Source of the DNA: Escherichia coli
GTDB lineage: Bacteria; Pseudomonadota; Gammaproteobacteria; Enterobacterales; Enterobacteriaceae
Direction: 5' to 3' (one strand)
Assembly: GCF_003334355.1 (NCBI RefSeq)
Contig: NZ_QOWP01000030.1
DNA: 45,643 nucleotides
This document shows, one piece after another, positions 1-8,169 of this stretch. The stretch's first letter is position 1, and the number at the start of each line of letters is the position of its first letter. A program made the position numbers and the translations under genes. Under the pieces are notes generated by a model. That model saw only the letters and a list, made by a program, of their open reading frames with translations, had not been told where the DNA came from and did not search any database.

Positions 1-632
1 GCCTGCCGGGGCAGCAGTATGATGAGGAGTCCGGCCTGTATTACAACCGCCACCGCTATTATGACCCGCTGCAGGGGAGGTATATCACTCAGGATCCGAT
101 TGGGCTGAAGGGGGGATGGAATTTTTATCAGTATCCGCTGAATCCGGTTCAGTATATAGATTCAATGGGACTGGCATCAAAATATGGACACTTAAATAAT
201 GGCGGATATGGAGCGAGACCCAACAAACCGCCTACGCCCGATCCAAGTAAATTGCCGGACATAGCGAAACAATTAAGACTGCCATATCCTATTGACCAGG
301 CCAGTAGTGCGCCTAATGTTTTCAAAACATTCTTCAGAGCATTAAGCCCTTACGACTACACACTGTATTGCAGGAAGTGGGTAAAACCAAATCTGACTTG
401 TACGCCACAGGATGATTCCCAGTATCCAGGGATGGATACAAAGACAGCAAGTGATTACCTGCCACAGACAAATTGGCCAACAACTCAATTACCACCAGGA
501 TATACTTGTGCAGAACCCTATTTATTCCCAGACATTAATAAACCCGATGGGCCAGCAACAGCAGGGATAGATGATTTGGGTGAAATTTTAGCTAAGATGA
601 AACAGAGAACATCGAGAGGAATAAGAAAATGA
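1..632 (+). CDS. rhsO: Rhs-family protein, 3' portion (orphan Rhs core end plus C-terminal tip); 5' end lies outside the window
   Basis: Frame-3 reading from nt 3 gives [57 protein letters not shown], the conserved end of an Rhs core, continuing without a stop into the 155-codon ORF 165..632. Base composition turns AT-rich after about nt 165. Confidence 0.85.
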
Positions 633-1198
633 AAAGAGTTTTGTTCTTTTTGCTGATGATATTTGTTAGTTTTGGTGTTATAGCTGATTGCGAAATACAA
701 GCTAAAGATCATGATTGTTTTACTATTTTCGCTAAGGGTACTATTTTTTCCGCGTTTCCTGTCTTAAATAATAAAGCCATGTGGAGATGGTATCAGAATG
801 AGGACATCGGTGAGTATTATTGGCAAACAGAACTGGGTACATGTAAAAATAATAAATTCACACCAAGCGGGGCGAGACTCTTAATTCGCGTCGGGTCACT
901 ACGCCTTAATGAAAATCATGCCATCAAAGGAACGTTGCAGGAGTTGATAAATACAGCAGAAAAAACGGCGTTTCTCGGCGATCGGTTTAGAAGTTATATA
1001 AGAGCGGGTATCTATCAAAAAAAGAGCAGTGATCCAGTTCAGTTGTTGGCAGTCCTTGATAATTCAATCATGGTAAAATATTTTAAAGATGAGAAACCAA
1101 CTTATGCTCGAATGACAGCACATCTCCCGAACAAAAATGAGTCTTACGAATGTTTAATAAAGATACAGCATGAACTAATTCGTAGTGAAGAGAAATAA
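629..1198 (+). CDS. ybfC: Secreted protein of unknown function downstream of the Rhs tip; candidate cognate immunity protein
   Basis: 189-aa ORF whose ATG overlaps the rhsO stop (ATGA). N-terminus [19 protein letters not shown] looks like a cleavable signal peptide. AT-rich like the Rhs tip. Confidence 0.8.
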
Positions 1199-1279: not shown

Positions 1280-2571
1280 GCAGGGAAAGATCACGTAACG
1301 CTACTTTTTTGTACTAAATAATTCGCATTTTATGTTTAAAAATTGAGATACTCCTTATTACCTAAAGCTGTTTTTCATAGCTTATACATGATCAAATACT
1401 CCTTACATAAATAAGGTGAACAAATGGAACTTAAAAAATTGATGGAACATATTTCTATTATTCCCGATTACAGATAAGCCTGGAAAGTAGAGCATAAATT
1501 GTCAGGCATCCTACTATTGACTATTTTTGCCGTTATTTCTGGTGCAGAAAGTTGGGAAGATATAGAGGATTTCGGGGAAACACATCTCGATTTCTTGAAG
1601 CAATATGGTGATTTTGAAAATGGTATTCCTGTTCACGATACTATTGCCAGAGTTGTATCCTGTATCAGTCCTGCAAAATTTCACGAGTGCTTTATTAACT
1701 GGATGCGTGATTGCCATTCATCAAATGATAAAGACGTCATTGCAATTGATGGAAAAACGCTCCGGCACTCTTATGACAAGAGTCGCCGCAGGGGAGCGAT
1801 TCATGTCATTAGTGCGTTCTCAACAATGCACAGTCTGGTCATCGGACAGATCAAGACGGATGAGAAATCTAATGAGATTACAGCTATCCCAGAACTTCTT
1901 AACATGCTGGATATTAAAGGAAAAATCATCACAACTGATGCGATGGGTTGCCAGAAAGATATTGCAGAGAAGATACAAAAACAGGGAGGTGATTATTTAT
2001 TCGCGGTAAAAGGAAACCAGGGGCGGCTAAATAAAGCCTTTGAGGAAAAATTTCCGCTGAAAGAATTAAATAATCCAGAGCATGACAGTTACGCAATGAG
2101 TGAAAAGAGTCACGGCAGAGAAGAAACCCGTCTTCATATTGTTTGCGATGTCCCTGATAAACTTATTGATTTCACGTTTGAATGGAAAGGACTGAAGAAA
2201 TTATGCGTGGCAGTCTCCTTTCGGTCAATAATAGCAGAACAAAAGAAAGAGCCAGAAATGACGGTCAGATATTATATCAGTTCTGCTGATTTAACCGCAG
2301 AAAAGTTCGCCACAGCAATCCGAAACCACTGGCACGTGGAGAATAAGCTGCACTGGCGTATGGACGTGGTAATGAATGAAGACGACTGCAAAATAAGAAG
2401 AGGAAACGCCGCAGAATTATTTTCAGGGATACGGCACATCGCTATTAATATTTTAACGAATGATAAGGTATTCAAGGCAGGGTTAAGACGTAAGATGCGA
2501 AAAGCAGCCATGGATAGAAACTATCTCGCGTCAGTCCTTGCGGGGAGCGGGCTTTCGTAATCTTTCCCTGC
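1280..2571 (+). mobile_element. H-repeat (ISAs1-family) element, copy 1, bounded by inverted 10-mers cagggaaaga / tctttccctg
   Basis: About 1.29 kb unit. The terminal sequence ctttttgtactaaataattcgcattttatgtttaaaaattgagata and the whole ORF are repeated again starting near 2571. Boundaries are approximate. Confidence 0.7.
1424..2560 (+). pseudogene. ybfL: H-repeat-associated (ISAs1-family) transposase, inactivated by an in-frame TAA at 1475..1477
   Basis: ATG at 1424 encodes [17 protein letters not shown] then TAA; the same frame continues as the 353-codon ORF 1499..2560. The intact paralog at 2691 reads through with Q at this codon. ybfQ is the name I recall for the short N-terminal piece. 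Confidence 0.85.
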
Positions 2572-3525
2572 TTTTTGTACTAAATAATTCGCATTTTATG
2601 TTTAAAAATTGAGATATTCCTTATTACCTGAAGCTGTTTTTTATTGCTTATACATGATCAAATACTTCTTACATAATTAAGGAGAACAAAATGGAACTTA
2701 AAAAATTGATGGAACATATTTCTATTATCCCCGATTACAGACAACCCTGGAAAGTGGAACATAAATTATCGGATATTCTACTGTTGACTATTTGTGCCGT
2801 TATTTCTGGTGCAGAAGGTTGGGAAGATATAGAGGATTTTGGGGAAACACATCTCGATTTTTTGAAGCAATATGGTGATTTTGAAAATGGTATTCCTGTT
2901 CACGATACCATTGCCAGAGTTGTATCCTGTATCTGTCCTGCGAAATTTCATGAGAGCTTTATTAACTGGATGCTTGACTACCATTCTTCAGATGATAAAG
3001 ACGTCATCGCAATTGATGGAAAAATACACCGGCATTCTTATGACAAGAGTCGCCGTAAGGGAGCGATTCATGTCATTAGTGCGTTCTCAACAATGCACAG
3101 TCTGGTCATCGGACAGATCAAGACGGATAAGAAATCCAATGAGATCACAGCTATCCCTGAACTTCTTAACATGCTGGATATTAAAGGAAAAATCATCAAA
3201 ACCGATGCGATGGGTTGCCAGAAAGATATTGCAGAGAAGATACAAAAACAGGGAGGTGATTATTTATTCGCTGTAAAAGGAAACCAGGGGCGGCTAAATA
3301 AAGCCTTCGAGGAAAAATTTCCGCTGAAAGAATTAAATAATCCCAAGCATGACAGTTACGCAATTAGTGAAAAGAGTCACGGCAGAGAAGAAACCCGTCT
3401 TCATATTGTTTGCGATGTCCCTGATGAGCTTATTGATTTCACGTTTGAATAGAAAGGGCAGCTATGGTTAGAAACTACCTGACGTCAGTCCTTGCGGGGA
3501 GCAGGCTTTCGTAAATTTGTCCTGC
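2571..3525 (+). mobile_element. H-repeat (ISAs1-family) element, copy 2, with an internal deletion of about 300 bp
   Basis: Same left-end sequence as copy 1. The ORF stops at FTFE, then the C-terminal remnant MVRNYLTSVLAGSRLS follows (compare copy 1 ...[16 protein letters not shown]). Right end approximate. Confidence 0.7.
2691..3452 (+). CDS. ybfD: H-repeat-associated protein, C-terminally truncated ISAs1-family transposase
   Basis: 253-aa ORF about 90 percent identical to the copy-1 translation over its length. Probably non-functional as a transposase. Confidence 0.85.
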
Positions 3526-7425: not shown

Positions 7426-8169
7426 ATGAAAAACACCGAACTGGAACAACTGATTAACGAAAAACTGAACAGCGCGGCGATTAGTGATTACGCGCCGAAT
7501 GGTTTGCAGGTGGAAGGCAAAGAGACGGTGCAAAAAATTGTTACCGGTGTCACCGCCAGCCAGGCTTTGCTCGATGAGGCAGTGCGTCTGGGCGCGGATG
7601 CGGTCATTGTGCATCATGGCTACTTCTGGAAAGGAGAGTCTCCGGTCATTCGCGGAATGAAGCGTAACCGTTTAAAAACGTTGCTGGCGAATGATATCAA
7701 CCTGTATGGCTGGCATTTGCCGCTTGACGCACATCCTGAGCTGGGCAATAACGCACAGCTGGCGGCGTTACTGGGGATCACGGTCATGGGCGAAATTGAG
7801 CCGTTGGTGCCGTGGGGCGAACTGACCATGCCTGTGCCGGGACTGGAGCTGGCTTCCTGGATTGAAGCGCGTCTGGGACGTAAGCCGTTATGGTGTGGCG
7901 ATACCGGACCTGAGGTGGTCCAGCGCGTCGCCTGGTGCACGGGCGGCGGGCAAAGTTTTATCGATAGCGCCGCGCGTTTTGGCGTGGATGCTTTTATTAC
8001 TGGCGAAGTTTCTGAACAGACCATTCATTCAGCCCGCGAGCAGGGATTGCATTTTTATGCTGCAGGTCACCATGCCACTGAACGTGGTGGTATTCGCGCA
8101 TTGAGCGAGTGGCTGAATGAAAATACCGATCTTGATGTGACCTTTATTGATATTCCTAATCCTGCATAA
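7426..8169 (+). CDS. ybgI: Nif3-family metal-binding protein (GTP cyclohydrolase 1 type 2 homolog)
   Basis: 247-aa ORF with GGAAGG ribosome-binding site; translation recognised as YbgI. Confidence 0.92.
   Translation: MKNTELEQLINEKLNSAAISDYAPNGLQVEGKETVQKIVTGVTASQALLDEAVRLGADAVIVHHGYFWKGESPVIRGMKRNRLKTLLANDINLYGWHLPLDAHPELGNNAQLAALLGITVMGEIEPLVPWGELTMPVPGLELASWIEARLGRKPLWCGDTGPEVVQRVAWCTGGGQSFIDSAARFGVDAFITGEVSEQTIHSAREQGLHFYAAGHHATERGGIRALSEWLNENTDLDVTFIDIPNPA

Follow-up and report, generated by a model that had tools for sequence, protein, structure and literature searches.

In the first 1.2 kb of a 45,643-nucleotide stretch of Escherichia coli DNA (assembly GCF_003334355.1, contig NZ_QOWP01000030.1; referred to below as the window) the gene ybfC overlaps the end of a truncated rhs gene, whose variable C-terminal tip is presumed to be a toxin. 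This arrangement raises two questions: whether YbfC is the immunity protein of the Rhs tip, and in which compartment of the cell such a pair would work. The first-pass annotation of the window had proposed that YbfC is an exported immunity partner and that the tip would then act in the cell envelope rather than in the cytoplasm. Comparison of YbfC, of the tip and of the related modules makes it reasonably probable that the whole of this chain holds, with an exported YbfC conferring immunity to a tip that acts in the periplasm.

Export signal of YbfC

The gene ybfC occupies positions 629–1198 and its translated open reading frame (ORF) encodes a protein of 189 amino acids; like all features of the rhs–ybfC module described here, it is on the plus strand. 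Residues 1–19 (629–685) form a predicted signal peptide, recognised by a simple rule for its n-, h- and c-regions and by comparison of homologues. The n-region, MKR, includes K2 and R3 and has a net charge of +2, the h-region (V4–A19) is a run of 16 uncharged hydrophobic residues with a mean Kyte-Doolittle value of 2.92, and the c-region has V-I-A at positions -3 to -1 and D, not proline, at +1. The predicted cleavage site is VIA/D, where the slash marks the point of cleavage. No further hydrophobic or membrane segment follows the signal, which led to the rejection of YbfC as a multi-pass membrane protein.

The cleavage site was called by the n/h/c rule and not by a trained predictor. For calibration the rule was applied to the homologous stretch of K-12 with its 36 annotated genes, where YbfC received the top score and YbgO, YbgP, YbgD, TolB, Pal and CpoB were also flagged. 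No cytoplasmic protein was flagged; the errors were a single false positive, the membrane protein YbgE, and a single miss, the usher YbgQ.

The charged n-region, the hydrophobic run and the small residues at -3 and -1 are retained in all 21 full-length close homologues, which share 59–92% identity and originate from E. coli, Escherichia albertii, Salmonella, Citrobacter, Kluyvera and Pseudocitrobacter. In each of them the charge of the n-region is +1 or +2, position -3 is A, V, S or T, and position -1 is A, S or G, while the length of the hydrophobic run ranges from 10 to 18 residues. The same three-part pattern is found in 8 distant homologues with 19–32% identity, where K or R is likewise present in the n-region. 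Distant relatives of YbfC, encoded 3' of distant relatives of the tip, have the sites ALA/CEIE, ASA/MTDD, AIA/NDE, AFA/ERPQ and LYA/EVK. Judged from these alignments, conservation of the signal pattern is far above chance. Mean identity in the enterobacterial clade is 56% over the first 20 residues of YbfC versus 73% over the mature part, and the distant relatives P0099–P0101 have nearly identical mature parts and strongly diverged signal sequences. The physical character of the N-terminus is thus constrained while its sequence drifts, as would be expected of a signal peptide.

The hydrophobic run raises the alternative that YbfC faces the periplasm and remains tethered there, with its signal retained as an anchor or, in certain species, as a lipoprotein acylated on Cys21. 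The 16 hydrophobic residues of the E. coli protein are indeed near the upper limit of length for a cleaved signal, but position 16 is Asp in most homologues, which leaves an h-region of 12 residues, too short for a membrane span, and small -3/-1 residues are found at positions 17 and 19 in 21/21 homologues. The lipoprotein form of this alternative could draw on the invariance of Cys21 in the enterobacterial clade and on the lipobox-like sequences IAAC, MASC and IGAC of some homologues; against it, the residue before Cys21 is D in the window and N, T or Y in others, unlike a lipobox, and distant relatives that lack Cys21 still have AxA sites. Tethering of YbfC is therefore regarded as improbable.

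Processing by signal peptidase II was also rejected for the protein of the window, where the lipobox [LVI][ASTVI][GAS]-C is replaced by I-A-D-C. Cys21 is preceded by D in this protein and by N, T, Y, A or S in homologues, and distant relatives do not have this cysteine; the signal of YbfC is thus not that of a lipoprotein. A substrate of the twin-arginine translocation (Tat) pathway was excluded as well: the n-region is MKR, the twin-arginine motif (S/T-R-R-x-F-L-K) is absent, and RR does not occur in any homologue. The classic signal peptide claimed for YbfC in the first-pass annotation is confirmed by this analysis and can be specified as one of the signal peptidase I type, shared by the close and the distant homologues. 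The assignment of the N-terminus to a textbook Sec/signal peptidase I signal, present family-wide, is well supported by the sequence comparisons, and export of YbfC is very probable. Its actual translocation and cleavage would proceed by this route.

Properties of mature YbfC

The mature protein would comprise 170 amino acids (686–1198, with the stop codon at 1196–1198) and is predicted to form a beta-sandwich. It contains four cysteines, encoded at 689–691 (C21), 716–718 (C30), 842–844 (C72) and 1151–1153 (C175). Cys30 and Cys175 are invariant throughout the YbfC family, and Cys72, like Cys21, is invariant in the enterobacterial clade. These invariant cysteines would fit disulfide bonding in the periplasm.

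A Foldseek search with YbfC against AFDB50 recovered its own family, with a top match named 'Periplasmic protein [Salmonella enterica]', and also uncharacterised proteins of about 190 amino acids from Paracidovorax, Delftia, planctomycetes and Lentisphaera. YbfC and the members of its alignment had no match in Pfam, NCBIfam or PADLOC at E <= 0.001, PDB sequence and profile searches gave matches at chance level only, and a profile-based homologue search returned no named relatives.

Linkage of ybfC to the Rhs tip

A gene of the YbfC family directly follows the tip in all 15 modules inspected, and the two families are adjacent in main and in orphan positions, at differing chromosomal loci. Full-length Rhs genes (1379–1399 amino acids) carry the module in E. 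coli O157:H7 EDL933, at the rhsC locus, and in E. coli WCHEC96200, at the rhsA locus; full-length genes also carry it in Citrobacter portucalensis, Kluyvera and Salmonella salamae. Some modules are orphans located behind other Rhs genes, and some lie next to vipA-hcp-vgrG or VgrG/DUF2169/PAAR genes. The presence of the same module at different rhs loci across strains and genera fits C-terminal displacement and recombination between rhs elements. In total, 3615 of 5426 complete E. coli genomes carry the module, and in most of those ybfC is intact.

The two genes are connected by a translational-coupling junction (614–632), which consists of a Shine-Dalgarno sequence and a start/stop overlap and is conserved in related modules. 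The ATG of ybfC (629–631) overlaps the TGA (630–632) of the upstream Rhs ORF within ATGA (629–632). The Shine-Dalgarno sequence GAGAGGA (614–620, with GAGG at 616–619, 9 nucleotides 5' of the ATG) lies within the final codons of the tip. The junction AGAGGAnnnAGAAA-ATGA recurs in 13 of the 15 related modules, including distant ones, which indicates that the last codons of the tip supply the Shine-Dalgarno sequence of ybfC. The spacing between tip and ybfC is the 4-nucleotide ATGA overlap in 13 modules, an overlap of 14 nucleotides in one and a gap of 1 nucleotide in another. The translational coupling through an ATGA overlap that the first-pass annotation had described is real and conserved, and its Shine-Dalgarno element is located inside the coding sequence of the tip.

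The element AGAGGAnnnAGAAA both encodes the conserved C-terminal R-G-x-R-K of the tip and forms the Shine-Dalgarno sequence and the approach to the ATGA of ybfC. Given this double duty, protein conservation at the end of the tip may partly reflect translational coupling. The junction (611–632 in the window) was also observed at loci L002, L004–L006, L008, L018, L019, L021, L024, L025 and L028.

Pairwise identities of the tips and of the mature YbfC proteins are correlated across 13 modules (r = 0.94, Mantel 0/5000) and also within the enterobacterial clade alone (r = 0.72, Mantel 0/5000). Both genes are under purifying selection, with ratios of nonsynonymous to synonymous substitution rates (dN/dS) of 0.1–0.4; for ybfC the values among E. 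coli and E. albertii alleles, orphan copies included, are 0.24–0.31. The position, size, coupling and exclusivity of ybfC are those of the canonical immunity slot. A role of YbfC as the immunity protein of the tip is thus likely, and the candidacy put forward in the first-pass annotation gains support from constant adjacency, co-divergence and purifying selection, as far as sequence data can give it.

The sites occupied by the module are diverse. They include the rhsA locus between nikR and yibA (L019, 3276–8029), the rhsC locus (L018, 3264–8030), a site adjoining rpmE (L004, 5859–10582) and a type VI secretion system (T6SS) cluster (L002, 4067–10582). Tandem modules or YbfC-family genes were seen at two loci, namely L005 (8590–9174 and 10001–10582) and L008 (4735–5301 and 5404–5976). 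In Citrobacter a main-gene module is followed by an orphan module with a YbfC paralogue of a different subgroup, and at L008 the second YbfC-like gene has its own signal peptide and is not preceded by a tip. These tandem YbfC-family genes look like small immunity arrays.

The Rhs tip

The variable C-terminal tip (174–632) comprises 152 amino acids and the stop codon at 630–632. It consists of a proline-rich linker (about 174–300), a conserved core (about 300–540), an acidic helix and a basic R-G-x-R-K end; it is rich in proline, aromatic residues and cysteine and has no hydrophobic segments. The conserved core follows the pattern SPYDYxxYCxKW...C...GYxC..PyyFPEL. Three cysteines, encoded at 369–371, 399–401 and 507–509, belong to the residues that never vary in relatives with as little as about 33% identity; no histidine does, which makes a Cys-His amidase mechanism unlikely.

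Among 1.84 billion representative proteins, a full profile search identified no more than 26 relatives of the tip. Every relative whose sequence was read is the C-terminus of an Rhs protein, with no known attached domain other than Rhs. The tip and the members of its alignment had no match in Pfam, NCBIfam or PADLOC at E <= 0.001, and PDB sequence and profile searches gave chance-level matches only. In the Pfam and PDB searches the tip showed no resemblance to the nuclease, deaminase, NADase and ADP-ribosyltransferase tips that need cytoplasmic immunity. The AlphaFold2 model of the tip is poor, with a predicted local distance difference test score (pLDDT) of 51.6, and Foldseek recovered with it only its own Rhs relatives, through sequence similarity; no activity can thus be read from the structure.

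The Foldseek matches included the AFDB entries A0A1G7FWS2 and A0A1G7FPQ7 from Paracidovorax valerianellae, as well as A0AAJ1IAG7 and A0AAJ1MIK5. They suggest that a distant relative of the tip (39% identity) and a distant YbfC-like protein (22% identity) are both present in one betaproteobacterium, and the tip–YbfC pair may therefore extend beyond Enterobacteriaceae.

Site of action of the pair

The majority of the Rhs tips that have been characterised act in the cytoplasm, as nucleases, ADP-ribosyltransferases or NADases (PMC6730261, PMC10684867). The tip studied here could do likewise; YbfC would then be carried along with the module not as immunity protein but as an exported, unrelated passenger or as an accessory factor. 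This explanation is judged unlikely, as the tip has no similarity to any cytoplasmic toxin family and contains three invariant cysteines. It would also leave the tip without a candidate immunity gene, as no further ORF that could serve lies between the tip and ybfC or immediately behind ybfC, while the position of ybfC, its size, the 4-nucleotide overlap and its co-divergence with the tip match the canonical immunity slot.

The O157:H7 lineage bears on the same issue. In strain EDL933 the ybfC gene (7460–8030 of locus L018, corresponding to 629–1198 of the window) has a frameshift inside the signal peptide, caused by a change at window positions 641–652. There GTTTTG-TTCTTTTTG has become GTTTTGTTTTTTTTTG: a C-to-T change and the insertion of one T have created a run of nine T (T9) in codons 5–8, and translation terminates early, with the product MKRVLFFFADDIC followed by a stop. 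Exactly this allele is common to 221 complete genomes of the lineage; they have an intact full-length Rhs toxin gene, whose tip shares about 98% identity with that of the window. Tolerance of an intact toxin gene next to a broken ybfC may be counted in favour of a tip acting in the cytoplasm, with YbfC not being its antidote. However, a toxin without its immunity protein would be expected to harm its producer more if it acted in the cytoplasm, and the O157:H7 case therefore does not favour that explanation. The loss of ybfC possibly reflects phase variation, a silent toxin or a tolerated loss. It may be speculated that a broken antidote is more tolerable if the toxin is harmless in the cytoplasm of its producer than if it acts there.

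Several points weigh against the preferred reading of YbfC as exported immunity to a tip acting in the periplasm. The T6SS of O157:H7 is reported to deliver another Rhs toxin (PMC6730261), which makes a frameshifted ybfC beside an intact toxin gene awkward for an indispensable immunity gene. Linkage alone yields co-divergence, so that the correlation of the two families shows inheritance as a unit and not binding. Export, binding and toxicity are predictions, the cleavage site is a rule-based call, and the fold of the tip, modelled at low confidence, gives no positive identification of an envelope target. Searches of the literature on ybfC, ybfO and periplasmic immunity in Rhs systems yielded no functional study of the pair, and the papers that mention ybfC state no function for it.

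On the other side, the compartment of an immunity protein is taken as an indicator of the compartment in which the effector has its target (PMC6833914), and the export signal of YbfC makes the periplasm the most likely site of action of the toxin–antidote pair, an arrangement familiar from other contact-dependent toxins. Precedents among Rhs proteins are fusions to L,D-peptidase domains that act in the periplasm (bioRxiv 10.1101/2020.02.18.954545) and the toxin Tse5, which works from the periplasmic side (PMC10684867). Action of the tip in the envelope is further suggested by the invariant cysteines in both partners and by the absence of a cytoplasmic-enzyme signature, such as that of a nuclease, in the tip. 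The argument of the first-pass annotation, leading from an exported immunity protein to an envelope-acting tip, is supported to this extent; neutralisation of the tip by YbfC and a periplasmic site of action would both follow from it.

Organisation of the locus

By genome comparison, the first 1.2 kb of the window corresponds to the rhsC region of E. coli. A query of 1400 nucleotides has 99.9% identity to many complete E. coli genomes, in which the region is annotated as an incomplete 'RHS repeat-associated core domain-containing protein' whose N-terminus is missing, followed by 'protein YbfC'. In the window, positions 1–173 hold the end of the conserved Rhs core of a 5'-truncated orphan rhs gene of the rhsO/ybfO type, as indicated by domain matches, annotation and sequence. 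Residues 1–57 of the ORF at 3–629 match the NCBIfam models RHS_core and Rhs_assc_core; the core motif DPIGL is encoded at 93–107, and a second motif, IDSMGL (156–173), marks the boundary between the core and the variable tip. The GC content drops from about 50% to 36–44% over the tip and ybfC.

An in-frame ATG at position 165, encoding the M of IDSMGL, would give a product of 155 amino acids, nearly exactly the free tip. This methionine is not kept in all relatives of the tip.

Two decayed copies of ISAs1 (H-repeat) transposase genes follow 3' of ybfC, and after them lie ybgA and phrB. The tandem remnants, at 1424–3452, are annotated as pseudogenes. In the first, codon 17 is followed by a TAA stop (1475–1477), the remaining frame being open to 2560, and the second (2691–3452) is truncated after 253 codons. 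The ISAs1 stretch of K-12 MG1655 is about 380 nucleotides longer than that of the window.

Such surroundings could mean that the module of this genome is a silent relic and the signal peptide a fossil of past function: annotation treats the upstream ORF as a pseudogene truncated at the N-terminus, and the ISAs1 copies next to the module are decayed. K-12 and K-12-like strains are not known to have a T6SS, which also speaks for a relic. Nevertheless, most of the 3615 complete E. coli genomes with the module have an intact ybfC, and the dN/dS values given above, obtained with orphans included, indicate constraint on its product. Orphan immunity genes that are retained as protection against neighbours are, moreover, a recognised feature of polymorphic toxin systems. 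A mere relic is thus rather unlikely, and this explanation concerns the current use of the module in one strain, without conflict with the nature of the protein. As the rhs gene of the window is 5'-truncated, its tip would be a stored, undeployed orphan, and ybfC at most an orphan immunity gene.

Comparison with known toxin systems

The closest parallels in organisation are the periplasmic immunity proteins of T6SS effectors, which include Tai/Tsi against amidases, Tli against lipases, Tldi/Tai5 against L,D-peptidases and the proteins of the Rhs-DUF2778 subset, whose toxin domain is fused to Rhs (bioRxiv 10.1101/2020.02.18.954545). As in the tip–ybfC module, a small gene lies directly 3' of the effector gene, the immunity product carries a Sec signal, and the toxin, delivered by the T6SS, has no signal of its own. 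Several tip–ybfC loci also adjoin T6SS genes. Neither the tip nor YbfC, however, has sequence or fold similarity to members of these families.

The pair Tse5/Tsi5 of Pseudomonas aeruginosa (PMC10684867) resembles the module in having an Rhs shell with a C-terminal toxin that acts on the envelope from the periplasmic side and is not an intracellular enzyme. However, the C-terminal toxin of Tse5 is a hydrophobic, membrane-inserting pore-former, whereas the tip is devoid of hydrophobic segments, and no homology was detected between them. YbfC differs from the Tse5/Tsi5 system as well, being predicted to be a soluble exported beta-sandwich.

With the canonical Rhs/RhsI pairs of E. coli, such as Rhs-CT3 and Rhs-CT5 (PMC6730261), the module shares a core with DPxGL motifs, an AT-rich tip, an overlapping immunity gene, orphan copies 3' of main genes and movement between rhs loci. 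Canonical RhsI proteins are cytoplasmic and have no signal peptide, in contrast to YbfC with its conserved export signal and cysteines.

A different precedent is provided by colicin M with its immunity protein Cmi and by pesticin with Pim: both toxins attack targets that can be reached from the periplasm, and the immunity proteins are periplasmic for this reason. The location proposed for YbfC is the same. The route of entry differs, colicin M and pesticin being imported through a receptor and the Tol or Ton system and the tip by way of a T6SS and an Rhs protein, and the PDB sequence searches found nothing in common.

In existing records YbfC has the database name 'putative secreted protein' (PMC6033998), and an in-silico study of strain EDL933 labelled the O157 copy, z0853, as 'RhsCI', with no remark on its function or on a signal peptide (PMC7216683). 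Secreted or periplasmic database names of this kind were thus already known, and the step from exported immunity to a periplasmic target is standard logic in the T6SS field. What appears to be new is the family-wide occurrence of the signal, the uncharacterised cysteine-rich family of tips, and the presence of the module, often on full-length Rhs genes, in roughly two of every three complete E. coli genomes.

Proposed mode of action and implications

In the mode of action that would best account for these features, a full-length Rhs protein is fired by the T6SS into the periplasm of a neighbouring cell, where the tip would be freed from its shell and act on a target in the envelope that is accessible from that side. 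With its three invariant cysteines, the tip may fold or become active only in this oxidising compartment. YbfC, as the cognate immunity protein of the tip encoded directly upstream, would be exported by the Sec pathway, processed by signal peptidase I and released as a periplasmic protein, with a predicted beta-sandwich fold and probably one or two disulfides, which would bind and block the incoming tip. In the window, translation of ybfC would be coupled to whatever passes through the orphan ORF, and YbfC would at most protect against neighbours that possess the full-length version.

A bolder combination of these elements can be offered tentatively and is rather doubtful as a whole. According to it, the tip would found a new class of small, cysteine-dependent and possibly non-enzymatic periplasmic toxins, neutralised by an immunity protein with a new beta-sandwich fold, and O157:H7 would be armed with its antidote switched off by the T9 frameshift, leaving it self-sensitive or with phase-variable immunity.

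Rather than a new principle, the analysis yields a well-defined and readily testable candidate, which could lead to a new envelope-acting toxin. If confirmed, the proposed function would give YbfC, a protein of E. coli K-12 that has so far been without a function, both a compartment and a role, and would mark an uncharacterised family of Rhs toxins as acting on the envelope and not on nucleic acids. Envelope toxins without a recognisable enzyme fold can reveal new vulnerable targets in the envelope of Gram-negative bacteria.

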